A stretch of 64,000 nucleotides of DNA, from the NCBI GenBank assembly GCA_023261845.1, contig JALNJZ010000006.1, forward strand, positions 19,113 to 83,112, read 5' to 3'. The position numbers were made by a program, and so were the translations under genes. Under the pieces are notes generated by a model. The model did not search any database and was not told the origin of the DNA. It was given only the letters and a program-made list of their open reading frames with translations. Shown piece after piece: positions 26,688 through 58,354 of this stretch (positions are counted from its first letter, which is position 1; every line of letters begins with the position of its first letter). The DNA comes from Candidatus Terraquivivens tengchongensis (lineage in GTDB: Archaea > Thermoproteota > Nitrososphaeria_A > Caldarchaeales > Wolframiiraptoraceae).

Positions 26688-26993
26688 TTACCTATGTGTT
26701 GTCGCTTTTTTAATTGCCTCTATAGCCTGATCAACCGTTAACATAGGAACTACTTCAAAGTGAGCGTAGGGCATCCACGTAAGCAAGCGGGTGAAGAGTT
26801 CCGCTTCGTTTGCTGCTTCGCTAATTGTGTATCCGAAATCTCCACCTGCAGCCATTCCCCAGTCCTTCGTTACTCCAGCGTTCAAACTTGCTTTAACCAT
26901 ATCAAGCATTGAAAGCCAGACTTTAGCCCTTTGTTCAGCGTCAACTGGCACCTTAGTCGGCTCCAGCCACCATTTCACATAAAATTTGGTCAC
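26688..26993 (-). CDS. Small conserved hypothetical protein
   Basis: 101-aa ORF with good coding composition. Confidence 0.4.
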   Translation of the reverse strand: MTKFYVKWWLEPTKVPVDAEQRAKVWLSMLDMVKASLNAGVTKDWGMAAGGDFGYTISEAANEAELFTRLLTWMPYAHFEVVPMLTVDQAIEAIKKATTHR

Positions 26994-27145: not shown

Positions 27146-27161
27146 TGCGGGGGTGGGATTT
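27146..27161. repeat. Distal att repeat copy of the integrated element (duplicate of the tRNA-Leu 3' end)
   Basis: TGCGGGGGTGGGATTT matches 38545-38561 (TGCGGGGGGTGGGATTT) at 16/17 with a one-G indel. That sequence is the 3' acceptor/T-stem region of the tRNA-Leu gene. Confidence 0.6.
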
Positions 27162-27358
27162 CAGCATTAATTTACCGGTAAATTATCTCTTATCTTCTTT
27201 GTCACCGTTTTTGGCGCTATCTCGATAAAATAACTTTTTCGGTAAAACATGCTCATAAAAGGTTACTATCCAAACGCTGAACTTATAGTTTTATGTTAAC
27301 CTTCTAGGTTTTGTCGGCTGTGGCCTGCATGCAAATTGATTATCTGGCGATCTAGATT

Positions 27359-27769
27359 TTGAAAAAATTTTTTAAAGATTTTGATGGTTTGTTTTTTAGG
27401 GTTGCTCGCAGGTATTTGGGTGGTGTTAGGGACGTGGATGTGGTTGTTATGGTTGATGATTTGACGCTTGTTGATGGAGATTCGCCTCTAGCCTATAAAG
27501 CGCCTGAGGGTAGCGAGTGGGGTAAACAGAAATTTTCCAGTGAGGTTTTGGAGAGGGCTAGGGCTGTTAATGAGAGGTTTTTGGAGAAGAAGCTTAGGAA
27601 TGGGCGGTATGGTGAGGTTTATTTGGCTATGGGGAAACAGTATGCCGCGGCCCTGCCAGACTTGGCAAAATACGGTGTGAAAGTGGTTTTTCCAACTAGC
27701 GGCGGACCCGGACCAAAAGCACAAGCACTAAAACAATGGATTTTGAGGGAAGAATCTAATGAGTTTTGA
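27359..27769 (+). CDS. Hypothetical protein, first cargo gene of the island (TTG start; start uncertain)
   Basis: 136-aa ORF with extreme G+T-rich composition. Ends 11 nt inside the MTase gene start. Contains VVFPTSGGPGP. No family recognised. Confidence 0.4.
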   Translation: MKKFFKDFDGLFFRVARRYLGGVRDVDVVVMVDDLTLVDGDSPLAYKAPEGSEWGKQKFSSEVLERARAVNERFLEKKLRNGRYGEVYLAMGKQYAAALPDLAKYGVKVVFPTSGGPGPKAQALKQWILREESNEF

Positions 27770-30728
27770 GAGGTTTGTAGAAGAGAAGTTGCCATTAACT
27801 CTTTTGAATAAGCTTAGTGCTAAAGAGTCGGGTTTTATTCGGATTCCAAAAATTCATAATATCCATACGTGGTTTGCTAGGAGGCCAGCTGGCGCTGCTC
27901 GTGCATTGACTTTAGCGGCTGTATTGCCGAAACATGTTGAGGAGAATATTTACAATAAGATTTCGTCTCTGGTAGATGCTGAAAGATTAGATAAAGTAAT
28001 TTATATTGTTAACCCAGACAGGGATACTATTAATAGTAAATTGAAAAGTTTCATCGGTAAAAGCGCAAAGGATGTTGTTGTTTGTGATCCTATGGCTGGT
28101 GGTGGCAGTATTCCTCTTGAGGCTTTGAGGCTTGGTTTTAGGACTATTGCGGTTGAGTATAATCCTGTTGCCTATCTGGTTTTGAGGGCTTCTGTGGAGT
28201 TTCCAGCCAAATATGCTGATTCGGGGCTTTTTGAAGAAACATTGAAGGCTTCTAAAGAGTTTGTTAGTAGGGCTAGAGAAGAGCTTGGCAAGTATTATGG
28301 TGAGGATGCTGAGAACTACATTTTTGCTCGTGGTGTGAGGTGTCCATTCTGTGGCGGGCTTATTCCAATTCAGGGGATTGAACCGGCGATAACTAAGGCG
28401 CCGAGGTTCAAGAAAAGGTTCTTGAAAATAACTTATGACAAGGAGAAGAAGACTTTCTCTGCTGAAACAACAGATAAAGCCATAGCATCTGGAACCATTG
28501 CTAAACGTGGAAACAATATTAAATGTCCTTACGATGGCTGTGGAAAATGGTTCCAACTACGTGGGCAAGCGAAAGGAGAAACAACAGCCTTTGACCAATG
28601 GTTTTACGAACATGCAAAAATGATGGAAAGCATCGTTGAGGGTTTCGCTCCAATTACTGGCGAGCTTGAAGAGAAAATGCTTAACCTACACATTTCACTG
28701 GTAAAGCAGGTTGGCAACAGTTTTCAAGCAATATGGGACGAAAGAATAGAAAAAGGAAAGTTTGTGGATGCTTTGCATGCTCTTAGCAATGAGCTTTTAG
28801 AACTTCAAAACTACATCCCTCTGGACGAGATTTCGGCGGATAACGTTTGGGCTAGCACTGCGGTAAGCAAGGGATTGACGAAGTGGTATATGCTCTACAA
28901 CCCAAGACAACTACTGGCCATAGCGAAACTATCAAAAATTGTGGCTGAAACCGCCGAGAAACTAACTTCAAAAGATGGAGAGTTTGGAGCAGCAGTAGCC
29001 ACATACATTGCATTGGCGTTAGACAAGATAATAGACTACAACACTATAGCCACCCATTGGCAAGGAACAGGCTTTAAAACTGGTATTGCACACACTTTGC
29101 GGGGTGAGAGCACCCTTGACTTCAGAAAAGAATACTGCGAAATAAAACGTGTAGACGAAGCATTGATGTGGACTTTGGAACCTGATGTCGCTGAATCAGA
29201 CGTTCTAACAAAAACAACTGGTGGGGTTCTCCCAGTATTAAAATTCCTCTGCGATGAGTTTAGAAGCGCAGATGCTAAAGAAAAGGTAAACGTCTATTTG
29301 GGTGATGCCACTCAGCTTTCTTCCATTTTAGGCATAAAATCTATTGACCTTATTAATGTTGATCCACCCTACTTCGAGCAGGTAATATATAGCGACAGAA
29401 GCGAGTTCTTCTGGGTTATACTCCGCAGATCCCTAGCTCCAGCCCTAGAACTCTTATTCAAACCAAACCTCAAACTCTCCAATTGGACATGGACAAGCCC
29501 CACAGTGCCAAGAGAAAGAGAAGTTGTAACCTACGACAAAGAAGACACGCAGGGAAGATTCCGCAAATTCTTCACCGACTTCATAACAGAAACCTCAAAA
29601 GTCCTAAAAGACGACGGAGTCCTAACCCTCTGGTTCACGCATCCCACAGCACTAGCATGGCGGGTTGTCAGCGAATCCCTATACCAAAACGGCTACGTAG
29701 TCCCAAAAGTCTGGCCCCTACAAACAGAAATGAAAACCCGCTACAAAAAACACGTAAACATAGTAGCTCAAGAAATGAGCCTAGTAATAGTAGGCCGCAA
29801 ATACCCACGCCAAAAACTACTGGAAGTGTCGCCCCAAGACGTTAAGGGAAGCCTTATGGAAAACCCCCTATTCACAAAGACAGTTGAAGAAACAGTAGAA
29901 GACACAAGAAAAATAATCATGGAAGCAAACGCCTCCCCAGCCGACACAGCCGCCCTAATGTTCGGAACAGCCCTCAGCGTAGCCTCCCGCTTCGAACTAC
30001 CAATAGGCGCAACCTTCACAGACCTATACGACACAGCCATAACCGCCGTAATATCAAGATACACAGAACCCCTAATCTACAAGGTGCTAACCCAAATAGG
30101 ACCCCAAAAACTAGACGAAAATACAGCCCAAAAAATAGCCAAAAATATAGCCCAAGCCATGCTATGGGACCCAGCAACCCGCTCATACCTGACGTTATGG
30201 CTAATATCCCGCGTAGACCTCGCCACAGCAAAAATACGCCAAGAACCCTTAGGCTTGCATTTTGACCTCGTCCAAACAGTAGGCAAACTATGCGGCTTCG
30301 GCATAGAAAACCTAAAACACTACAGCCTCATAACAGAAAAAACCATAAACAAAACAGGAAAAGCCTACTACCCCCAATTCCTAGAAATGCTAACCCTACC
30401 AGGCGGACAAACCTACCCAGACAGACTAATGCAGGTAGCCCCAGGATTGGCGACAATCCTAGCCCGCATGGCCATGACAGAAAGCGGAGACCCAGCAGCC
30501 AGAGCAAAAACCATAAAGGCGAAAATGAGCATGCACAGCGACAGAGAACTCTCAAGCTGCGCCGCCCTAGCCACAATCCTACTAGAAACCGCACGCGACC
30601 AAGACTTAGGCTATAGAATAACAGACAAAACAAAAATAACAGGATACTTCCCAGGCATGGACGAAAGCGAAATAGCAAAACTCGTAAGAGAATTAGCTAT
30701 AAAAACCCTAACACACTTAGTCTTTTAA
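27759..30728 (+). CDS. DUF1156-type N6-adenine DNA methyltransferase with inserted Zn-ribbon (PglX/PglXI-like)
   Basis: HTWFARRP at aa 36-43 is the DUF1156 N-terminal hallmark. SAM motif I VVCDPMAGGGSIPLEA at aa 108-123. Cys4 ribbon CPFC (aa 195-198) and CPYDGC (aa 256-261). Catalytic motif IV NVDPPYF at aa 533-539. SD-like GAGGG lies 11 nt upstream of the ATG. Confidence 0.8.
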   Translation: MSFERFVEEKLPLTLLNKLSAKESGFIRIPKIHNIHTWFARRPAGAARALTLAAVLPKHVEENIYNKISSLVDAERLDKVIYIVNPDRDTINSKLKSFIGKSAKDVVVCDPMAGGGSIPLEALRLGFRTIAVEYNPVAYLVLRASVEFPAKYADSGLFEETLKASKEFVSRAREELGKYYGEDAENYIFARGVRCPFCGGLIPIQGIEPAITKAPRFKKRFLKITYDKEKKTFSAETTDKAIASGTIAKRGNNIKCPYDGCGKWFQLRGQAKGETTAFDQWFYEHAKMMESIVEGFAPITGELEEKMLNLHISLVKQVGNSFQAIWDERIEKGKFVDALHALSNELLELQNYIPLDEISADNVWASTAVSKGLTKWYMLYNPRQLLAIAKLSKIVAETAEKLTSKDGEFGAAVATYIALALDKIIDYNTIATHWQGTGFKTGIAHTLRGESTLDFRKEYCEIKRVDEALMWTLEPDVAESDVLTKTTGGVLPVLKFLCDEFRSADAKEKVNVYLGDATQLSSILGIKSIDLINVDPPYFEQVIYSDRSEFFWVILRRSLAPALELLFKPNLKLSNWTWTSPTVPREREVVTYDKEDTQGRFRKFFTDFITETSKVLKDDGVLTLWFTHPTALAWRVVSESLYQNGYVVPKVWPLQTEMKTRYKKHVNIVAQEMSLVIVGRKYPRQKLLEVSPQDVKGSLMENPLFTKTVEETVEDTRKIIMEANASPADTAALMFGTALSVASRFELPIGATFTDLYDTAITAVISRYTEPLIYKVLTQIGPQKLDENTAQKIAKNIAQAMLWDPATRSYLTLWLISRVDLATAKIRQEPLGLHFDLVQTVGKLCGFGIENLKHYSLITEKTINKTGKAYYPQFLEMLTLPGGQTYPDRLMQVAPGLATILARMAMTESGDPAARAKTIKAKMSMHSDRELSSCAALATILLETARDQDLGYRITDKTKITGYFPGMDESEIAKLVRELAIKTLTHLVF

Positions 30729-30747
30729 ATAGAAAGAGGCAGTAGCC

Positions 30748-33700
30748 TTGAAAACCATAGGCCAAATTTTCCAACTGAAAGAATCCCTTCTAGAAATAAA
30801 GTCAGAACTAACACCAAGCTTCGACGAAGTAATAAGAAGCTACCTAGGCCAACATGTAAAAACAAAATTCAAAGACCCCGCCTACACAACAGAAATCACA
30901 TACCCTACACCTCCACTCCAAACCTTCATCAAAAGAATCCTTGAAGGCCTAACAATACCAACAGTTCAAGGCACATACCTAATAAGAGGATTCGGCTTCG
31001 GAAAAACCCACGCCATAATACTCCTCTGGCACATGCTAAACTCAAAAGAAGGAGCAAACTCCCAACTAGCCAAACAATTCGGCCTAAAAGAAAACATAGC
31101 CCAAGAAACCCTAGCCCTAGGAATAGACTTCAGCAAAGAACAACCCTTCCCCCACCTATTCAACCAGCTAGAAGCCATAGCAAAAAGACAACCAGAACAA
31201 TGGCAAATAAAAGACCCAAGGCTTTCCCAAGCCATAATAGAAGTAACCAGAGAAATAAGCAGAACCAAAGCCCTAGCCCTACCCTCAGAAGAACTCGCAA
31301 ACCTAATAATCAAAATACTAGAAAAATATAGGGAAGCGAAAGCTAATCCGAGGCTTCTACTCCTAATAGATGAACTTGGAATAGGAATAATCAGCAGACT
31401 TACAAGCTACATAGAAACCCAAAACGAGGAAAAATACGGCGAAATCGAATACATAACCAACTTCATAGAACAACTCTACACAAAACTAAGCGGAAAAGGC
31501 ATACCAGCCTACATCATAGTCGCCCTCGCAGAACAAGACATCAGAGAAATAGACCACATATACCTCCAACAAGCAGACAAACCCATAATCCAAACAAAAA
31601 TAGACGGCCTAAGAAAACGCCTCAACATCCTAAAAGAACGACTAAGCAGAGCAGTCGGGGGCCTAGGCGAAGAAGCTGCACTATCCTATGACCCAGAACA
31701 CGCCATAAACATAGCAAAACACAGAGTCTTCAAAAAAATCGAAGAGGAAAAAGACATAGAAAAAACCCTAATAGCATACCTAACTCTACAAGCCCAACAA
31801 TACAACCTCCAAGAAACCTTCGAAACCTACAAAGAACAAATCAAAAACTACTATCCGCTTTCCCCAAGCATGATTTGGCTGTTCCGGAAAATCCTAAACC
31901 CCTACGACGCTCCTGGAACAGAATACGTAAGAACAACCCTAAACATACTCGCAGAAGCCGCCGAAAACGCCCTAACATACGAGCCCCACAAGTCGCTAAC
32001 CGTAAGCGCAAAACACCTCTCCATAGGACGGGCAGGCGTAATCGACCTCATGGGAGACTTCGAAGCAGAATGGGCCAGCACAGCCTCAGACATAGAACAC
32101 GCCATAAAATCAGCAAATCCAGAAATACAAAAAGCCGTAGACATAGTCGCCAAACAAATACTTGCAAAAGGCACAACAGCCAACGTTACAGCCCTCATAG
32201 AAGTAAGAGACATAAAAGAAATCAAAAGATACGCCGTTTCACCAGAAGAAATGCAAATAGACATACTAACCACGCTACCCTCAGAAGAAGCAACCAAAAC
32301 CATAACACAACTCCAAGAGGCCATAGAATACCTAAAAACACAAAGCGCAAGAATCGAAGAAAAAGAACATGAAAAACAAAAATTCTATCTGCCATCCCCA
32401 ATGAGAACAATCTACGACAAACTTGCAGCCTTTGTAGCAGAACACAAAAGGATACTTGAAGAACCAACCCAATTACCAGGATACCTACAACAAGCAAACC
32501 TGCCTAGCCTCCTATACAGCCCAAAAGCAGCAATACCATCAAGAGAAAAAGAAGTCACAATACTTCTAAAGGAATACAACACTGTCACAAATGCTGAAGA
32601 ACTCATAAACAGTGTGGACGTAAGAGATGCTCAAAACGAAGGAAACCTCTCCATAATAGTTGTCCCACCATGGGACGCCTTTCTCTTCAACGAACTCTAC
32701 CAAAGAAAAACAGACTACCATACCCTCACAAACACAATAGCCCAAAAACTCCAAAGCATAAATCTGGCAGGAAAAATCAGCCACCCCTTACACCTATTAG
32801 TCCTCATACCAAACATAAACCAAGACAAACTGACACGACTAATAGACGACGTAATATCATACGCAGCCGTAAAAGACTTCATCAAACACCTCGAAAACAA
32901 AGAAAAAATCCTAGAAGAAAAAATGTATGACTACGAAAGAACCGTCAAAAAGAGACTCACACTAAGGCTAACAGAGTTCTTAGAAGAACAACGCAAAAAA
33001 CTCGAGATAAGCCTTAAAAGCTCCATAGAACGACAAGTAAGAGACGCCAGATCATCCGCCCAAAAAGAACTCATAAAACTAACACGAAAAATAGCCACAA
33101 GTGCAATAGAACTCTACGAAGACGTAATCTATTACAGCCTACAATCCCAAAACTTCACAGCTCAAAGCCTAATCAAACTCTTCGGTGAACTATCCGGAGA
33201 AGCCTCAAAACTAGAACAAAGCGGAAAATCCTCCCTGTCAGAATACTCTCTAATCGTAAACATGTTCTTCAGAAGAGTAACAGAATCCACAGGATTCTCA
33301 TGGGAGCCAGACACCATAGCAGAAGCCATATACAAACACTACAAGGCAGAAATTGAAAGTGGAGTAATCCGAAAACAAGACAGGATAAACGAAATAGTTG
33401 AAAACTCACTTCTCGGCACATACGAAGTAAAACCACTAAGCTCTAAAGTAGTTCAAGAAGCCATCCAAAAACTAAACGGCAAAACAATAGAAGCTGAAAA
33501 CAAAAAAGTAACATTAAAAGTCGACGAAAAAACCAACCGGATAATCTTTAAAATAGAGGAAATAAAGCCGCCAGAAATAATAACAGAAGAAAAACCCACC
33601 GAAATACCACCAGAAGAAATACCCGTTCCAACAGAAGACCGCCCCGCAATTGCTGAAAAAACCCTTGGAGAAGTCATAATCGAAGTAGACCAAAACTTCA

Positions 33701-34011
33701 ATTATGAAGATTTCAAACAAAAATTAGACTCACTTTATCAAACCTATGGAACACTAATAAGCTCCATAAAAATCGGGACAAGCGGAAACTTCATCAGAGT
33801 AACTTTTGACTTCCTAGGTTCAAAACACTCAACCACCACAATTATTAGCGCAGCAAGATTCCTCAGACAAATCTCAAACATGTATAAGGCCACCCCGCAA
33901 CTTGAAATCAAGTTCACAAGCCCACTTCCAGAAGAGAAGCTCCAAGAAATACTCGGCTCATTCTTCACTAAAAAAGTGAGAAGAAGCTGGGATCGACTTC
34001 TACCGAGTTAA
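30748..34011 (+). CDS. Large P-loop NTPase, DUF499/COG1483-like (BrxC/PglY-like), TTG start
   Basis: 1087 aa. Walker A GFGFGKTH at aa 81-88. Walker B LLLLIDELG with D208/E209. Long alpha-helical C-terminal two-thirds and a Pro/Glu-rich linker (aa about 930-960). The gap from the MTase gene is 19 nt. Confidence 0.65.
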   Translation: MKTIGQIFQLKESLLEIKSELTPSFDEVIRSYLGQHVKTKFKDPAYTTEITYPTPPLQTFIKRILEGLTIPTVQGTYLIRGFGFGKTHAIILLWHMLNSKEGANSQLAKQFGLKENIAQETLALGIDFSKEQPFPHLFNQLEAIAKRQPEQWQIKDPRLSQAIIEVTREISRTKALALPSEELANLIIKILEKYREAKANPRLLLLIDELGIGIISRLTSYIETQNEEKYGEIEYITNFIEQLYTKLSGKGIPAYIIVALAEQDIREIDHIYLQQADKPIIQTKIDGLRKRLNILKERLSRAVGGLGEEAALSYDPEHAINIAKHRVFKKIEEEKDIEKTLIAYLTLQAQQYNLQETFETYKEQIKNYYPLSPSMIWLFRKILNPYDAPGTEYVRTTLNILAEAAENALTYEPHKSLTVSAKHLSIGRAGVIDLMGDFEAEWASTASDIEHAIKSANPEIQKAVDIVAKQILAKGTTANVTALIEVRDIKEIKRYAVSPEEMQIDILTTLPSEEATKTITQLQEAIEYLKTQSARIEEKEHEKQKFYLPSPMRTIYDKLAAFVAEHKRILEEPTQLPGYLQQANLPSLLYSPKAAIPSREKEVTILLKEYNTVTNAEELINSVDVRDAQNEGNLSIIVVPPWDAFLFNELYQRKTDYHTLTNTIAQKLQSINLAGKISHPLHLLVLIPNINQDKLTRLIDDVISYAAVKDFIKHLENKEKILEEKMYDYERTVKKRLTLRLTEFLEEQRKKLEISLKSSIERQVRDARSSAQKELIKLTRKIATSAIELYEDVIYYSLQSQNFTAQSLIKLFGELSGEASKLEQSGKSSLSEYSLIVNMFFRRVTESTGFSWEPDTIAEAIYKHYKAEIESGVIRKQDRINEIVENSLLGTYEVKPLSSKVVQEAIQKLNGKTIEAENKKVTLKVDEKTNRIIFKIEEIKPPEIITEEKPTEIPPEEIPVPTEDRPAIAEKTLGEVIIEVDQNFNYEDFKQKLDSLYQTYGTLISSIKIGTSGNFIRVTFDFLGSKHSTTTIISAARFLRQISNMYKATPQLEIKFTSPLPEEKLQEILGSFFTKKVRRSWDRLLPS

Positions 34012-34023
34012 AAGGGAAGATCC

Positions 34024-35439
34024 TTGACAGAATTAGAAGAAAAAATCCAAAAAACATTCGGAGAAGTAGCCGTCAACAAAGGATTAGCCCTACGCCACGA
34101 AGTTGCAAGACTACCACGCTTCATATCCGAATACCTAATATCCAAATACTGCGCCGCATACCCAGACTGCGAAACAGCCTTCAGCAAACTCGCCGAAGTA
34201 GTAGCAGAAAACTTCCCAGAACCCAAAGACAAAGACCGAGTATTCTACAAGCTAAAACGTCTAGGCATAGTCCAATTAATGGACGAGTTCAAAGTAAGCA
34301 TTGACCTAAAAAGAAACCTATACCTCTTACACATACCATGCCTACAAATTTACGACGCACTGGCTGACGAAGGAATAGTCAGAAAATTTGAAAGAACACT
34401 ATCCGGAATGTGGGGCCTAGGAACACTAGAATATCGTCCAGACTTACCCGAAAACATGGACGAAACCCTCTCACCAATCCTGCTAATAGACATAGAACCC
34501 TTCCAAGTCTATAACATTGATGTTAAGGGCTTTATCGAGAACCGCCAAAAATTCACATTGGACGAGTGGATAGATCTAATAATAACAACAATTGGGCTAA
34601 ACCCCAACGCCTATTCTCCCAGACAGAAACTTTTGCAGCTAGCAAGACTAATCCCCCTCATAGAAGCAAACGTCAATCTTATGGAGTTAGGACCAAGAGC
34701 CACAGGAAAAACATATCTTTACAGGAATCTATCCCACTACACTCGCATATACTCTGGAGGTGCAATAAGTCCAGCTCGACTCTTCTTTGACGCCAGATTA
34801 CGATTGGTTGGAGATATAGCAACACATGACCTTGTTGCATTTGATGAAGTAAGCAGAATCAGATTCACAAACCCAGATGAAATGGCTGGAAAACTAAAAG
34901 ATTTTATGGTTGATGGTTTCTTTGAACGTGGCACCCTAAAAAGAGCCCATAGCGGTTGTTCTATAGTATTTCTCGGAAACATCGAAAAAGAAGAAGGCAT
35001 ACCAATTAAAGAAATAAGATACGCTCTGCCCGATATTATGCAAGATTCAGCGTTTCTGGACAGAATACACGGTCTCCTACCAGGCTGGGAAATGCCTAAA
35101 ATAATGAAAAGTGAAGAACACTTGGCCCAAGGAATAGGGTTAGCGGCAGACTATTTCGCGGAGATAATTCATGAACTGAGAAAAGAAAGCTTTAGAGATG
35201 TAATAAACGCCCATGTAGAGTTTGGAAGCAGCTTCACAATAAGGGATGAAAATGCTGTCCGAAAATTAGCTTCAGGACTAGTTAAACTACTATTCCCAAA
35301 TCGAGAATTCAATAACAATGAACTAAGACAAGTGCTCAATTTAGCAGTAGAAATGAGACAGTACATTGTAGACGAATTAAGTGAGATGTCACCCGTTGAA
35401 TTTCCGCGCAAACGTCTAGAGGTAAAAGTGAAAGGATAA
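34024..35439 (+). CDS. Lon-related AAA ATPase, BrxL-like (N-terminal ATPase module only, no protease domain)
   Basis: 471 aa. Walker A GPRATGKT at aa 223-230. Walker B DLVAFDEVSRI. Size and organisation resemble the COG4930/BrxL-family ATPase domain. The gap to the previous gene is 12 nt. Confidence 0.55.
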   Translation: MTELEEKIQKTFGEVAVNKGLALRHEVARLPRFISEYLISKYCAAYPDCETAFSKLAEVVAENFPEPKDKDRVFYKLKRLGIVQLMDEFKVSIDLKRNLYLLHIPCLQIYDALADEGIVRKFERTLSGMWGLGTLEYRPDLPENMDETLSPILLIDIEPFQVYNIDVKGFIENRQKFTLDEWIDLIITTIGLNPNAYSPRQKLLQLARLIPLIEANVNLMELGPRATGKTYLYRNLSHYTRIYSGGAISPARLFFDARLRLVGDIATHDLVAFDEVSRIRFTNPDEMAGKLKDFMVDGFFERGTLKRAHSGCSIVFLGNIEKEEGIPIKEIRYALPDIMQDSAFLDRIHGLLPGWEMPKIMKSEEHLAQGIGLAADYFAEIIHELRKESFRDVINAHVEFGSSFTIRDENAVRKLASGLVKLLFPNREFNNNELRQVLNLAVEMRQYIVDELSEMSPVEFPRKRLEVKVKG

Positions 35440-35441
35440 GA

Positions 35442-36260
35442 ATGATGGTTAATTTTACAAGCGAACTTGAAGCTATAGTTAAAACGGCATCAACCCTCAG
35501 CAACATGCCCGTAGAAGTATTCCACAGAATAATATTTTGCTCTTTCATAAAAGCTGGTCTATCAATTTACGGAGCCCAAAAAGAACAAGAAATAGAATTA
35601 GAAAACCTAATTAAAACCGTTGCTGCGCCATACCGTGGACTAGTGAATGGAAAATTATATTTGAGCGCCCTCCGCTTTGTAAAAACTTTTAACACTCTTT
35701 TAAAAAACAGCAAACGTGCAACTATACTTAAAGAGGCAGATCTTCAATATATCCTAAAATTTCTTGAAAATAAGATTGGTAAAGTTGACACCGTGTTTGT
35801 TCTCGACTGCGCATCAATCCCAGAAATCATAGCAATAGCAAGTAAATTTTCTGCTTCAAGGCGTAATACAACATTCTATGAAGAAGTTTTCATAAATCCC
35901 GTTGGCATTACGCGTTTTCTAACCGGGCAGCTTGAATCATTCAATCGCGAAAGCTACCTAGTGCAGTATGCAAAACTGTTAAAGGAAAGACTAAACGCCA
36001 ACTTCTTTACAAAAATCTCAAAGGTAGATCTTATAACACATCAGCACGGTTACACGTTAGATGGCTTTCTAAAATCCATCGAAATGCAGAAATTATTTGA
36101 CCACATAAGCCATTTCGCAAAACAAAGCTCCGTGCTTATCACGTCAGACCACGGATATGACGTAGTCGCAGATGAGCATGGACTTTATATAACACATGGT
36201 TATAAAAAGGAATGCCCACTAAATTTCAGCAGAATAGCCCTATTCCTCGTAATCGACTGA
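35442..36260 (+). CDS. Small protein with alkaline-phosphatase-superfamily-like motifs (candidate mini PglZ-like domain)
   Basis: 272 aa. FVLDCASIPE (D122-C123) and VLITSDHGYDVVADEHGLYITHGY (S235-D236-H237-G238) resemble the Asp/nucleophile and DHG metal-ligand blocks of the AP/PglZ fold. The gap to the previous gene is 2 nt. This is inference only. Confidence 0.35.
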   Translation: MMVNFTSELEAIVKTASTLSNMPVEVFHRIIFCSFIKAGLSIYGAQKEQEIELENLIKTVAAPYRGLVNGKLYLSALRFVKTFNTLLKNSKRATILKEADLQYILKFLENKIGKVDTVFVLDCASIPEIIAIASKFSASRRNTTFYEEVFINPVGITRFLTGQLESFNRESYLVQYAKLLKERLNANFFTKISKVDLITHQHGYTLDGFLKSIEMQKLFDHISHFAKQSSVLITSDHGYDVVADEHGLYITHGYKKECPLNFSRIALFLVID

Positions 36261-36271
36261 GGGGACCAAAA

Positions 36272-36784
36272 ATGGAACACAGCTACTACCTAATCTTCAA
36301 GACCAAAAAGAAAGGAAGCGAAATATCCTTCAACGTCGGGACCAAAGAAAAAACCACAACATTACTCAAATTCAGGGGACGCCGTACCGAAGAAATATTT
36401 AACAAAATTCTCAAGGCTCTAAGCAAAGTAGGATGCATAACACCCCTTCAAACGGGCAATCCTAGCGTATATTACGTAAGAGATGATGTAGGTCCAGTTT
36501 TAGGCACTTATCTCATTCTTATTCGGCGTGCACAAAAAATCGATTATTGGATAACCTTTTTAGATGAATTACTAACAGGTAAATATGCGAGACTCGGGGA
36601 AACATTCTCAACATTACTTGAGTCATCTATAGAATTGTCAAAAGCAACAATTTCAAAAAGCCAAAGGAAAGAATACACACTTTCACCTGTTATCGTTTCC
36701 TCTTTTTCATCGGCACTTAAAGTACTGGTCAAAAGGTTAAAATCATACGAAACTGAGCCCCCCGCTAAAACGTTTCATCATTAA
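36272..36784 (+). CDS. Hypothetical protein, last cargo gene of the cassette
   Basis: ATG at 36272 with SD-like GAGGGGA 8 nt upstream. An alternative ATG at 36212 overlaps the previous gene. No family recognised. Confidence 0.4.
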   Translation: MEHSYYLIFKTKKKGSEISFNVGTKEKTTTLLKFRGRRTEEIFNKILKALSKVGCITPLQTGNPSVYYVRDDVGPVLGTYLILIRRAQKIDYWITFLDELLTGKYARLGETFSTLLESSIELSKATISKSQRKEYTLSPVIVSSFSSALKVLVKRLKSYETEPPAKTFHH

Positions 36785-36911
36785 ATCTATAGCGTGTAGC
36801 GACATTAAAGTAAAACAGAAATGTTCTGTTAGTTGCATCTAAGCGAAAGATAGATTCCGCGATGGGTTTAGTTGATTTTAAGGTTCTTGAGGAGAGGCTA
36901 CCACTTTTGAC

Positions 36912-37968
36912 TTAAAAGTTGTAGTTTTTCGAGTGTTTTTGCTGGTTTAGGTTTGGAGAGAAGCCTAAATCTTGCTTGAAAATAAACTTGGATTTTTGGT
37001 TGTTTAAAAGAGGTGTTAAAATCCCCAATTTTGGTATACATGCCAAATATGTTTTTCTTAGTTCTTCTTTGTCTATGTGGTGGTATATGTCTATGGCTTC
37101 CCTGCGCCGGTCGCCTCTAAGCTCCTTCACGTATTCGCGGGGCATGTCGTTCCGTAAAAGCCAGGTTGTGAACCAGTGCCTGAAACAGTGGGGGCCGAAG
37201 TGGTCTTCTAGGCGGGGTGAGTTTGGGTTGTGGAAGCCAAGGCGCTTCGCGTATTTGACTATGGCTGTGTATAGGCCGTTTCTATCCAGCCTCCCAAGGC
37301 TTTGGTAACTTATGAAAAGCGCCTTTGTAGGCGGGTTCAGTTTCTCCCTAACCCTAAGCCACCTTTTAAGCGCGGCTGCGCATTCCTCATCAAAGAAAAC
37401 CGTGCGGTTGCTTCTTTTAGGCGTGGGCTTAAGCGTAATGGAATACTCAGCCCAATTTATGTCCTCAACATCAAGCCTCAAAAGTTCGCCCCTTCTTATT
37501 CCAGTCTTCGCCAGTAGCACTGCTATGGCTTTGTCCCTTGGATCCAAAATGGAGTTTACCAGTCGGCTCATCTCCTCAACGCTTAAAAGCCTCCGCTCAG
37601 GATCGTCATAGCCATCCTTATAGCGCTTAAGATACCGTTTTCTGAAGGGCAGAACAATGTTGCTGGTGATGTAGCCCTCAAAGGCCAAATAATCGTAAAA
37701 GGCTGAAAGCGCAGAAAAATAATTCTCAACAGTCTTATGCTTTGCGTTCATAAACCACGTGCTGGAGAAAGTCCCTAAGCACCTTAACATCCACGTCACT
37801 TATGCTGAAACCTCGGCTTTCAAGAAATTCCATAAATATCTTCAGGCTTGAAACGTATCTTCTTATGCTTTCCTCGGTCATGCCCCTAAGCCTACAGTCT
37901 CGGCTGAAACCCTCAACCAGAACCCATGAGTTTTGAAGCGTTTTCAAGCTTAACCCGTCCACCGCCAA
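36912..37968 (-). pseudogene. int: Tyrosine recombinase/integrase (XerC/D-like) disrupted by a single-nucleotide frameshift
   Basis: N-terminal SAM-like domain in one frame (...SLKIFMEFLESRGFSISDVDVKVLRDFLQHVVYERKA*, 37735-37968). The rest is in another frame (KHKTVENYFSALSAFYDYLAFEGYI..., 36912-37799), with catalytic R (GIRRGE), HxxR (HCFRHW) and Y (IDIYHH). Removing one A/T from the run at about 37741-37743 joins them as ...VVYERKHKTVENY... Confidence 0.7.
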
Positions 37969-38522
37969 CCCCTACCCTTATACTCAACCAGCCCATAGGC
38001 TTCAAGGGCTTGAAGCTGCCTGTCAACAGCCCTAACCAAATCAACATCTGACGGATCGATGTTTAGGGCTGCCAAGATTTCCTTCTGCGTGTAAGATCCG
38101 CCCTTCCTCAACAAATCGATAAGGTCCTTGTCAAACTTTCTAACGCCCTCGAAGGTTTCCTGGAGGAAGGGCTGAGCCCTGTAACGCTTAAGCTCATTAT
38201 CCAAGTTCTCCGCCAACCTCTTCAAAAGCCTATTCTCCTCGCGTAGGCTCTTCAACTCCTCCTCGGCGCTGCGTAAACGCTTAACAAGCTCAGCACGGCT
38301 CAAGTAGCCTTCTTCACCCTCCTCACGCCGGATAGAATCCTCAACACGCTCAACAACAAACCTAGAAATCGACACGCCCGCCTTTTCCGCCCGACGCCGC
38401 CAATCCTCAACCATCTCAACAGACGGTAGATAAACATAAACCGCCCGATCCTTAATTGTACACGTCTTACCCCTATTAGGCCTCGTCACACCCACCAACA
38501 AAAATAACACACTTACGAGCAT
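37950..38522 (-). CDS. Coiled-coil plus C-terminal winged-helix protein (putative excisionase/regulator of the element); start uncertain
   Basis: Central heptad-rich region (LVKRLRSAEEELKSLREENRLLKRLAENLDNELKRY). C-terminus ILAALNIDPSDVDLVRAVDRQLQALEAYGLVEYKGRGWRW is wHTH-like. It lies between the integrase and the tRNA. Confidence 0.45.
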   Translation of the reverse strand: MLVSVLFLLVGVTRPNRGKTCTIKDRAVYVYLPSVEMVEDWRRRAEKAGVSISRFVVERVEDSIRREEGEEGYLSRAELVKRLRSAEEELKSLREENRLLKRLAENLDNELKRYRAQPFLQETFEGVRKFDKDLIDLLRKGGSYTQKEILAALNIDPSDVDLVRAVDRQLQALEAYGLVEYKGRGWRWTG

Positions 38523-38544
38523 TTATAATTTACCAGCAAATTAG

Positions 38545-38561
38545 TGCGGGGGGTGGGATTT
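38545..38561. repeat. Proximal att repeat, part of the tRNA-Leu 3' end
   Basis: TGCGGGGGGTGGGATTT. Its partner is at 27146-27161. Confidence 0.6.
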
Positions 38562-38646
38562 GAACCCACGAACCCCTACGGGACAGGGTCTCCCATCATA
38601 AAGGAATCTGAGCCCTGCGCCGTTGACCAGGCTTGGCAACCCCCGC
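38545..38646 (-). tRNA. tRNA-Leu(CAG) with 17-nt intron at 37/38 and long variable arm
   Basis: Folded by hand. Acceptor GCGGGGG/CCCCCGC with discriminator A. 3-bp D-stem GCC/GGC. Anticodon stem CAGGG/CCCTG. Loop CTCAGA[intron TTCCTTTATGATGGGAG]A. Variable arm TCCCGTAGGGGTTC. T-arm GTGGG-TTCAAAT-CCCAC. Confidence 0.8.
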
Positions 38647-38693: not shown

Positions 38694-39122
38694 TTACTTT
38701 AGCGTTTCTAAGGGAGCGTAGACATCTAGCTCGAATTCCGACAGGTGAGCTTTTCCGGAATCGGTCATGACCATGTGGTAGGTTGACTTTGGGGGTAGCT
38801 TTCTCTTTTTTAGACCGGCTTCCCTCACGATATCCTTAGAAACGGGCAGTCCGAGCTGGCCTGGTTCTACAACTATTAGCGGTGAGTCGTAGTCGAAGAA
38901 CGATACGGGAACTCTGCTGTATCCAAGCCCTTTCAGTATGTTGTAGCGGTGGTGTCCGTCCAAGATTACCATGGTTTTGTAATCTACCGCCAAAGATTTC
39001 TTAAGGTACCCATCGCGGAGTATCTCTGCTTTCAGCTCCTCTAAGTGCACTGGGTCTATCTCCTCATGCTCGATAAGCTCGTCTATCCTTACAACCTTCA
39101 CCTGCAAGGGCCGCAGCATCAT
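38694..39122 (-). CDS. ParB/Srx-like nuclease-domain protein
   Basis: 142 aa. ILDGHHRYNILKGLGY matches the ParB-like DGHHR motif. Confidence 0.5.
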   Translation of the reverse strand: MMLRPLQVKVVRIDELIEHEEIDPVHLEELKAEILRDGYLKKSLAVDYKTMVILDGHHRYNILKGLGYSRVPVSFFDYDSPLIVVEPGQLGLPVSKDIVREAGLKKRKLPPKSTYHMVMTDSGKAHLSEFELDVYAPLETLK

Positions 39123-58236: not shown

Positions 58237-58354
58237 CGCCGGGGCTGGGATTTGAACCCAGGCGACCCTCATCGGGTCAGCGGCTTTCTTGACCAGCACC
58301 GTTTCATTATAGAGATCTCGAGGCCGCCCCTATACCTGGCTAAGGGACCCCGGC
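58237..58354 (-). tRNA. tRNA-Ser(CGA) with about 31-nt intron at 37/38
   Basis: Acceptor GCCGGGG/CCCCGGC with discriminator G. 3-bp D-stem. Anticodon stem GCGGC/GCCGC. Loop CTCGAG[intron]A. Long variable hairpin GACCC-GATGA-GGGTC. T-arm CTGGG-TTCAAAT-CCCAG. Confidence 0.75.

Follow-up and report, generated by a model that had tools for sequence, protein, structure and literature searches.

A probable integrative island with BREX-related cargo and a decayed integrase at a tRNA-Leu gene of a hot-spring archaeon

Gene content and boundaries of the locus

We analyzed a stretch of 64,000 nucleotides (hereafter the window) of contig JALNJZ010000006.1 from assembly GCA_023261845.1, in which a block of genes lies against the 3' end of an intron-containing tRNA-Leu gene. 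Two copies of a short direct repeat, the putative core of an attachment (att) site, delimit a 9.7-kb set of genes related to bacteriophage exclusion (BREX) systems, which we term the cargo, and a 1.7-kb integration module with a 179-aa gene and the remains of a tyrosine integrase (Table 1). The whole is very probably an integrative genomic island of 11,399 bp (one core copy counted) that was inserted at the tRNA-Leu 3' end. The original prediction had placed the intron-containing tRNA-Leu at one end and a repeat of 16/17 nt at 38545-38561 and 27146-27161, and these coordinates proved exact. It had also put the integrase directly next to the tRNA, which needs correction: the integrase is the second gene, separated from the tRNA by the 179-aa gene, and is a frameshifted pseudogene.

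The target tRNA is well above the Rfam gathering score of 29 and is of class II, with a long variable arm and discriminator A73. Its 17-nt intron occupies the canonical 37/38 position, giving an anticodon loop CUCAGAA and the anticodon CAG (Leu). For this placement the hBHBh' splicing motif, drawn by hand from the sequence, is complete: the central helix is formed by the pairs C-G, U·G, C-G, and A-U and is flanked by two 3-nt bulges containing the splice sites. The minimum-energy fold computed by ViennaRNA for the isolated arm adopts another register. ARAGORN did not detect this tRNA in its default mode, and in intron mode it reported Ser(cga) with the intron placed within the anticodon. We rejected this call because such a placement cannot form the hBHBh' motif, because the discriminator is A73, and because the tRNA body matches the intron-less tRNA-Leu(CAG) of related contigs (e.g., L039).

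On the plus strand, the right core copy TGCGGGGGGTGGGATTT is the reverse complement of the tRNA 3' end AAAUCCCACCCCCCGCA and spans the T-loop through the acceptor stem to A73; together with the tRNA-Leu gene it constitutes attR. The left copy, TGCGGGGGTGGGATTT, forms the distal end of the island, and its five-G state is common to L028, L029, and L030. No further match to the core with up to two mismatches is present in the window (0.00 expected from 100 shuffles), and none of 300 order-2 Markov simulations of the window contained any core match within one edit. The possibility that a 16-nt match of this kind had arisen by chance, raised with the original prediction, was thus not borne out.

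Querying public assemblies with the flanking DUF3303 protein (26688-26993) yielded 23 contigs. The island is present in one group of these, made up of GCA_038897555.1, whose sequence is the same as that of the window, and contigs similar to it. At least eight contigs of sister metagenome-assembled genomes (MAGs; L006-L014) instead show a 142-aa gene, the tRNA-Leu, and the DUF3303 gene with nothing between them, the spacer from the 142-aa gene to the DUF3303 gene being ~300 bp. This is the empty site that had been predicted, in which the tRNA-Leu abuts the 26.7-kb flank. The empty contigs read ...CCCAAGA-TGCGGGGGGTGGGATTT-GAACCCACG... (alignment A1); the left junction of the window tracks them to the last T of the core and then departs, and the right junction meets them at the first T of the core. 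Across eight contigs the breakpoints coincide with both edges of the 17-mer to the base.

The tRNA-Leu has the same sequence in the window and in the empty-site contigs, and the flanks are 99.0-99.7% identical; the island-bearing and empty contigs therefore belong to the same species, recorded in the sister assemblies as Candidatus Bathyarchaeia MAGs from hot springs. Island-bearing contigs are mutually identical over 9.8 kb of the right flank (5.4 kb for L029), i.e., 0.0 substitutions per kb, compared with 0-1.9 substitutions per kb among the empty contigs and ~4 substitutions per kb between the two groups. With flanks that are identical or nearly so within and between these groups, the island is polymorphic within one species, being present in one and absent from the other of two very close lineages.

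Some further features of the region were recorded. The 142-aa gene that adjoins the tRNA (38694-39122, minus strand) has a weak ParB/SerK-like match in its N-terminus (NF053625, E = 2e-9, far below the cut-off) and is chromosomal, since it is present in the empty-site contigs. One contig, L002 (GCA_023268295.1 contig 1), tracks the window through the integration module to 36761; beyond this point, L002 (12349-12671) continues with a stretch that matches the 5' portion of the methyltransferase gene (window 28071-28393) at 82-95% identity. A second contig of the same MAG, L030, has the normal island, and L002 either ends in a chimera or stems from a variant element, co-occurring with the normal one, whose cargo is rearranged or different. 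The window also contains a second intron-containing class II tRNA (58237-58354, minus strand), whose loop CUCGAGA and discriminator G73 identify it as tRNA-Ser(CGA); it scored 38.7 bits in Rfam E-value mode, was missed by the gathering scan of the 64 kb and by ARAGORN in default mode, and has no adjoining integrase or repeat.

Table 1 Features of the island and its target tRNA in window coordinates.
Feature	Position	Strand	Remarks
Left att core copy	27146-27161		16 nt, lacks one G of the right copy; attL, distal island end
Cargo	27162-36817	+	9.7 kb; BREX-related set
Perfect 18-nt palindrome, P' arm site	27168-27185		6 nt inside left core copy
First cargo gene, 126 aa	27389-27769	+	136 aa if TTG start at 27359; no family match
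DUF1156-type N6-adenine DNA methyltransferase, 989 aa	27759-30728	+	PF06634 E = 2.3e-7; phrog_10183 E = 7e-82
BrxC/DUF499-like AAA+ ATPase, 1087 aa	30748-34011	+	P-loop GFGFGKTH; AlphaFold2 model, pLDDT 84.5
Short BrxL	34024-35439	+	PF13337 E = 3e-114; PF20442 E = 3e-23; TIGR02688 475.9 bits (cut-off 329)
Standalone PglZ-like protein, 272 aa	35442-36260	+	Alkaline-phosphatase fold; motif TSDHGYD...H; AlphaFold2 model, pLDDT 85.7
Last cargo gene, 170 aa	36272-36784	+	No family match; same position in L019-L021
Integration module	36818-38544	-	1.7 kb; 179-aa gene, integrase, ~100 nt downstream; 88-91% nucleotide identity to L015-L018
Tyrosine integrase pseudogene	36912-37968	-	Xer-like classical type; PF13495 + PF00589
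179-aa gene	37950-38489	-	190 aa if start is ATG at 38522; conserved partner of the integrase
Near-palindrome, P arm site	38526-38543		1 nt inside right core copy
Right att core copy	38545-38561		17 nt; equals tRNA 3' end
tRNA-Leu(CAG), integration target	38545-38646	-	102 nt including 17-nt intron 38590-38606; Rfam RF00005, 42.5 bits

The integration module and its arm sites

Nucleotide similarity of the window to L015-L018 runs from the tRNA to 36818-36821 and then ends, which places the boundary between module and cargo at this point. Within the module, the 179-aa gene lies between the tRNA and the integrase, its end overlapping the latter, and both genes share the strand of the tRNA. The 179-aa protein looks like a DNA-binding type with an N-terminal ribbon-helix-helix, a coiled coil, and a C-terminal winged helix; its N-terminus displays the strand-helix-G-x-S-helix pattern of ribbon-helix-helix proteins. 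In L015-L018, L023, and L024 the integrase follows this gene in an identical arrangement (homologues aligned in A4).

The integrase is spread over two reading frames, an N-terminal fragment (37735-37968) and a catalytic open reading frame (ORF; 36912-37799); the domains recognized are PF13495 and the tyrosine recombinase domain PF00589 (E = 8e-25). In its closest relatives, which number more than 100, the integrase is one continuous ORF of 302-323 aa, mostly 316 aa, with 75-96% identity. Two lesions account for the present state of the gene. Where intact relatives read GAACGCAAAGCAAAGCATAAG, the window reads GAACGCAAAGCATAAG, a 5-bp deletion (~37739-37743) by which one unit AAAGC was lost from the tandem AAAGCAAAGC and a stop was created at 37735-37737; the resulting frameshift falls inside the N-terminal core-binding domain. 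The second lesion is the insertion of a single T (ATTTAA to ATTTTAA at 37018-37021), which removes the normal stop and adds 35 codons. L002 (GCA_023268295.1) has the first lesion and not the second, so that the stop is lost in two of three copies. Even so, the sequence retains codons for the catalytic Arg, His-x-x-Arg, and Tyr, and these residues align with those of XerA (PDB 5hxy). As the gene carries two slippage indels, the island is most likely locked in place unless a related integrase acts in trans.

The integrase start and the core are ~580 nt apart, with the 179-aa gene between them, and the att site is accordingly outside the integrase ORF; integrases in the integrated copies L015-L018 are full length, i.e., their genes were not split by integration.

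Two dyad-symmetric sequences accompany the core copies, the perfect palindrome TAATTTACCGGTAAATTA at the left and the near-palindrome TAATTTACCAGCAAATTA at the right. In a circular form of the element, they would flank the core with their centers ~41 bp apart. The 179-aa protein probably binds these dyads. The near-palindrome overlaps a TATA-like sequence, TTATAAAT (38521-38528, minus strand), upstream of the 179-aa gene, and because this proximal dyad abuts the TATA-like box of the operon to which the gene belongs, dyad binding could also regulate the protein's own operon.

A family of modules specialized for tRNA-Leu

Comparable junctions were found at other loci. In L015-L018, L023, and L024, where the upstream sequence is readable, the module starts right after the tRNA with ...CCCACCCCCCGCA followed directly by CT(A/G)(A/T)T.T..C..GTAAA..TAAAT. 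ARAGORN identified the tRNA of L015 as Leu(TAG) and those of L016 and L018 as Leu(TAA); L017, like the tRNA of the window, was read by hand against an ARAGORN Ser call, the results being Leu(GAG) and Leu(CAG), respectively. For L023 and L024, whose tRNAs are of class II and contain introns, the assignment to Leu relies on body architecture only. The Tyr, Ser, and Pro calls made by ARAGORN for several tRNAs of related loci were rejected on the grounds used for the window tRNA (BHB motif drawn by hand, A73, and body homology to intron-less tRNA-Leu).

Searching with a degenerate pattern of tRNA 3' end and arm recovered 67 JGI/ENA metagenome contigs. The 179-aa partner gene begins at +62 to +95 in 39 of these, and 38 of the 39 also have the integrase at ~+590, in the same geometry and with 39-88% protein identity; the remaining contig, L035, has a partial copy of the 179-aa gene and no integrase. 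ARAGORN typed 35 of the 67 tRNAs outright as Leu, with the anticodons GAG, TAG, CAG, and TAA, and all typeable tRNAs ahead of related modules are tRNA-Leu; wherever the sequence upstream of a related module was readable (12 earlier loci and 39 of the 67 metagenome contigs), this tRNA 3' end preceded it. In 55 full-length unique metagenome arms, the two positions that the search pattern left free are T (53/55) and A (53/55), which completes the dyad TTTAC-YR-GTAAA, and a TATA-like TAAAT(A) follows ~8 nt past the dyad. Both the junction geometry and the typed tRNAs across loci indicate that the module family is specialized for the shared tRNA-Leu 3' end, with the arm sites as its conserved part.

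Distal ends were captured in L049, L058, and L064, where they consist of a palindrome-like site, a short spacer, and a core copy of 15-18 nt. L058 and L064 have a palindrome of the TTTAC-YR-GTAAA kind, and L049 has a degenerate one (9/12). Distal repeats were not found in the available DNA of L015, L016, and L023.

The segments in L049, L058, and L064 are 2.7-3.0 kb long, with tRNA-Leu and a palindrome on one side and a palindrome and core copy on the other. Their genes look ordinary, encoding surface proteins and a pyridoxal phosphate (PLP)-dependent enzyme, and include no integrase; judging from their ends, they may be integrase-less islands that kept the att architecture and are mobilizable in trans. 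Several contigs end inside or just beyond the module (L003 and L004, at window positions 38067 and 38120, as well as L015, L016, and L017), and GCA_038881875.1 contains two intact module copies at different tRNA-Leu genes. From these contig ends and the two copies in one MAG it follows that the module behaves as a dispersed repeat that breaks assemblies.

A BREX-related cargo

The methyltransferase, which follows the first cargo gene, is additionally matched by the PADLOC models MTase_II and HmaB (~1e-40) and by NF042963 (101 bits, far below the cut-off of 1000). The PADLOC PglX/PglXI model matches at 2e-6 over residues 598-681 only, and the protein is not a PglX. For the 1087-aa protein, profile searches of Pfam, PADLOC, NCBIfam, PHROGs, and PDB sequences returned nothing usable. 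Its predicted structure has the BrxC proteins of Acinetobacter BREX as the top two Foldseek matches and sole significant PDB neighbors (E = 3.7e-6 and 1.1e-5), and PF04465 appears weakly in two of 21 relatives. The short BrxL comprises the N-terminal domains and the AAA+ ATPase without a Lon or HKD C-terminal domain. The 272-aa protein has no match to PglZ in Pfam even at E <= 10, and other profile libraries gave nothing usable; Foldseek matches of its model are the PglZ domain of PorX (E = 4.5e-5), BREX PglZ 9zn5_B, and alkaline phosphatases. Pfam, PADLOC, NCBIfam, and PHROGs profiles matched neither the 126-aa nor the 170-aa protein, encoded by the first and last cargo genes, and counterparts of BrxA and BrxB were not identified.

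Virion, packaging, replication, and conjugation genes are absent from the nine ORFs of the island according to Pfam, NCBIfam, PADLOC, and PHROGs, and PHROG matches are limited to the methyltransferase, a protease-like family (BrxL), and the integrase. Presumably, the cargo protects its host against viruses.

In base composition the island is not uniform. The cargo has 41.7% GC, compared with 46.3% and 45.4% in the flanks and a host-like 47.3% in the integration module. Measured by tetranucleotides, the distance to the flanks reaches a maximum of 0.356 within the island, two to three times the background of 0.11-0.17, and the coding strand of the cargo shows a strong excess of A. The cargo is compositionally foreign and the module, in its GC content, is not. 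The original expectation that all genes between the repeats differ from the chromosome, to be checked with a GC or k-mer profile, thus holds for the cargo, which is distinct in both measures, and fails for the integrase module.

Relatives of the 1087-aa ATPase form ~90 clusters in a database of 5.8 billion proteins, and those with a named source are all from thermophilic archaea (Bathyarchaeia, Sulfolobales, Korarchaeota, Thermoprotei, and Fervidicoccus). The block of methyltransferase, ATPase, BrxL, and proteins of 270 and 165 aa is kept in a Sulfolobales MAG (L020, 69.5% nucleotide identity) and a Bathyarchaeia MAG (L021, 76%), and it recurs in L019 with a 388-aa gene in place of the methyltransferase. 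In all three loci it lies downstream of a tRNA 3' end (L019, 8823-19119; L020, 5800-17835; L021, 1-8984), and in L019 an SSV-type integrase (PF16795) stands between the tRNA and the block. Its position beside other tRNAs and its association with another integrase family imply that the defense block is cargo on different tRNA-integrating elements. Two QueC genes flank the block in L020, and a nearby tRNA there has a 3' end similar to that of the window tRNA-Leu.

Origin and mobility of the island

Site-specific integration at the tRNA 3' end, which had been put forward in the original prediction, is supported by the empty site, the breakpoints at the repeat edges, the tyrosine recombinase, and the family of modules at tRNA-Leu genes. 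A circular form of the element would have recombined with the 3' end of tRNA-Leu(CAG) by a crossover within the shared core of ~17 bp, presumably catalyzed by the Xer-like classical tyrosine integrase, whose gene would have stayed unsplit. In doing so the element would have supplied a replacement 3' end, leaving the tRNA intact and a partial copy of the end at the far junction. Such an element would be modular, with a 1.7-kb tRNA-Leu docking module and 9.7 kb of BREX-related cargo for a methylation-based defense against viruses, and two later slippage indels in the integrase gene probably fixed it in the chromosome. The locus is therefore best seen as a recently acquired defense island that is now immobilized.

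From the two island ends we reconstructed the attP site as ...TAATTTACCAGCAAATTAG-TGCGGGGG(G)TGGGATTT-CAGCATTAATTTACCGGTAAATTA.... Later homopolymer slippage is the more likely origin of the G missing from the left core, rather than an original difference in attP, because the repeats of L058 and L064 are perfect and two other slippage indels occur in the element; a crossover within TGCGGGG would also explain it.

A 1.1-kb contig, L079, contains at ~340-420 the core and proximal arm of the L088 element (compared also with L046 and L091). The core is preceded there by the arm-type sequence TACCGGTAAAGTCGGGTGGGGGT and not by a tRNA T-arm, and by its arrangement L079 may represent attP or a tandem junction of a related element.

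Several observations weigh against interpreting the locus as an integrated island with a defense cargo. The left core copy is one G short of the right copy. Neither an excised circle nor an attP junction was encountered, the attP pattern having no matches in viral contigs, and the exact junction and arm pattern gave no metagenome contig and a single match in species-representative genomes. The integrase is broken in all three MAGs with a readable gene, so that no present-day mobility can be claimed. Domain matches of the 179-aa protein are weak (HTH_5, E = 0.0045; PDB 2ef8, E = 0.007; HicB, 0.21), and the BrxC-like and PglZ-like assignments come from predicted structures only, with TM-scores of 0.26-0.48. 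All genomes concerned are MAGs, for which assembly artefacts at homopolymers are not fully excludable, yet the lesions recur in three independent assemblies. Finally, the island-bearing and island-free genomes form two sister groups with no outgroup, which leaves gain indistinguishable from precise loss.

This last point bears on the alternative that the island is ancestral and that the island-free genomes lost it by precise, integrase-mediated excision. We regard such a history as unlikely. The two groups are reciprocally distinct with nothing to polarize them, and site-specific excision would leave exactly the empty site that is observed. However, diversity is greater in the island-free group (0-1.9 substitutions per kb) than in the island-bearing group, which is clonal (0.0), the composition of the cargo is foreign, and all examined integrase copies are already broken. 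Loss would in any case alter the direction of the event and not the nature of the element.

It is very unlikely that the element is still autonomously mobile, whether through cooperation of the integrase fragments or through programmed +1/-2 frameshifting that bypasses the break. The catalytic fragment retains an open frame of 295 codons with all catalytic residues, and the same frameshift is kept in three MAGs. These MAGs are clonal, however, so that the shared frameshift is not independent evidence; more than 100 of the closest relatives have the integrase as one ORF, the first lesion is the plain loss of one tandem unit and breaks the N-terminal core-binding domain, and the second lesion destroys the stop codon in two of three copies.

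An integrated virus (provirus) or plasmid in place of a cargo island is highly improbable. Integration at tRNA genes by tyrosine integrases is typical of archaeal proviruses and plasmids (PMC8371274), and the closest relative of the integrase in curated plasmid and phage collections is encoded by the plasmid pC2A of Methanosarcina acetivorans (NC_002097.1; 45.7% identity over 96%). Against this, none of the nine ORFs is a capsid, packaging, replication, or conjugation gene, and six of the nine, with most of the length, form one defense-type cluster of which five genes are kept as a block. Provirus identity was rejected as no structural or packaging PHROG family was matched, and pC2A was rejected as a free relative of the element: it is a free plasmid without the 179-aa partner gene, the TTTAC-YR-GTAAA palindrome, and the tRNA-Leu core.

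A coincidental repeat, with the block brought in by homologous recombination of the flanks or by assembly error, would suit a core that is short (16/17 nt) and G-rich, but is already refuted by breakpoints that match the repeat edges to the base in eight contigs and by the recurrence of the same junction sequence after tRNA-Leu in dozens of unrelated contigs, and no simulated window held a second core copy.

Relation to known elements and defense systems

Integrative elements of the classical kind (Type II, non-suicidal), exemplified by pNOB8, are known from archaeal tRNA genes (reviewed in PMC8371274), and PYG1 of Pyrococcus yayanosii is an island that permits comparison (PMC5126054). In the terms of She et al. 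(reviewed in PMC8371274), the island described here falls into this classical class (Type II, non-suicidal): its att site lies outside the integrase gene, its target is a tRNA, and the PF16795 domain is absent. It shares with pNOB8-type elements and PYG1 the unsplit integrase gene, the tRNA 3' target, the direct repeat of the tRNA end, and cargo that is not a virus genome. Unlike those elements, it has a fixed 179-aa partner, dyads on both sides of the core, a Bathyarchaeia host, and a decayed integrase. Its integrase belongs to another lineage than that of pNOB8, with H-x-x-R as in Xer and bacterial enzymes where pNOB8 has Y-x-x-R. A suicidal SSV-type integrase, in which attP lies within the int gene and integration partitions it into Int(N) and Int(C) at opposite ends of the element, was rejected: the two fragments are adjacent at one end of the island, a 5-bp deletion accounts for the split, and PF13495 and PF00589 are found where SSV-type enzymes have PF16795.

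XerA (PDB 5hxy, 4a8e) is the best sequence relative among solved structures (E = 1.9e-19 with the family profile) and has the same two-domain architecture, catalytic Arg, His-x-x-Arg, and Tyr. The integrase differs from it in the replacement of the second His and in always adjoining tRNA-Leu. An identity as a XerA chromosome-dimer resolvase was rejected, given a score of 136 bits against a cut-off of 220 (NCBIfam recomb_XerA_Arch), the absence of the gene from island-free genomes of the same species, and the occurrence of two copies in one MAG.

For the cargo, a 2026 survey of BREX and BREX-related (BR) diversity provides the frame of reference (PMC12839542). According to this survey, BrxL is specific to Types 1 and 4, BR systems carry a helicase, and small BrxA-like and BrxB-like (iSTAND) components are universal in the BREX superfamily. 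Among the features by which membership in the superfamily is judged, a PglZ fold and a BrxC/PglY ATPase are present in the island as seen in predicted structures only, and a DNA-modifying enzyme is present as the DUF1156-type N6 methyltransferase. With BREX and BR systems in general the cargo thus has in common a BrxC/DUF499-like ATPase, an N6-adenine methyltransferase, and a PglZ; it departs from them in combining BrxL with a DUF1156 methyltransferase and no helicase. The DUF499-like ATPase, DUF1156 methyltransferase, and standalone PglZ resemble Type-3 BR, but the island has no helicase like the nuclease-less, BrxHII-like one of that type, with the short BrxL in the equivalent place. Type-4 BREX likewise has a BrxL without the C-terminal domain, but the island encodes a methyltransferase instead of the PAPS reductase (BrxP). 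This combination of genes matches no subtype in the survey (PMC12839542), and the ATPase and PglZ are too divergent for the Pfam, PADLOC, and NCBIfam profiles.

Small tRNA-associated modules with exchangeable defense cargo also recall pipolins, bacterial defense islands on integrative platforms (PMC11551731), and integrase-less elements mobilizable in cis, with which the integrase-less segments in L049, L058, and L064 may be compared in that they share the att architecture. Unlike in pipolins, the host is archaeal, the integrase is unrelated, piPolB is absent, and mobilization in trans is hypothetical here. Literature searches, whose coverage was incomplete, found no description of the integrase family, the integration module, or the cargo combination.

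Implications

Integration of an island at a tRNA gene is textbook biology, and as a phenomenon the locus is ordinary. Its value lies in a cleanly bounded island for which naturally occupied and empty alleles exist in one species, and in a defined att core with arm sites and intact relatives of the integrase that could be tested in vitro, e.g., as a tool for site-specific integration in thermophilic archaea. Documentation of mobile elements is sparse for Bathyarchaeia, an abundant but uncultured group.

Tentatively, and with odds that we put slightly below even, the locus points to an undescribed pair: widespread docking modules at tRNA-Leu genes with interchangeable cargo, and a BREX-related subtype of thermophilic archaea that travels on such elements. 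If so, docking modules composed of the 179-aa partner, the Xer-like integrase, and the dyads would occur in Bathyarchaeia and other Thermoproteota and may mobilize integrase-less islands, and the subtype would consist of a DUF1156 methyltransferase, a BrxC-like ATPase, a short BrxL, a 272-aa PglZ, and two small proteins. Surveys of archaeal defense probably miss this cargo because its ATPase and PglZ escape current profile libraries. The locus shows a defense system moving as cargo among Bathyarchaeia, Sulfolobales, and other thermophiles.

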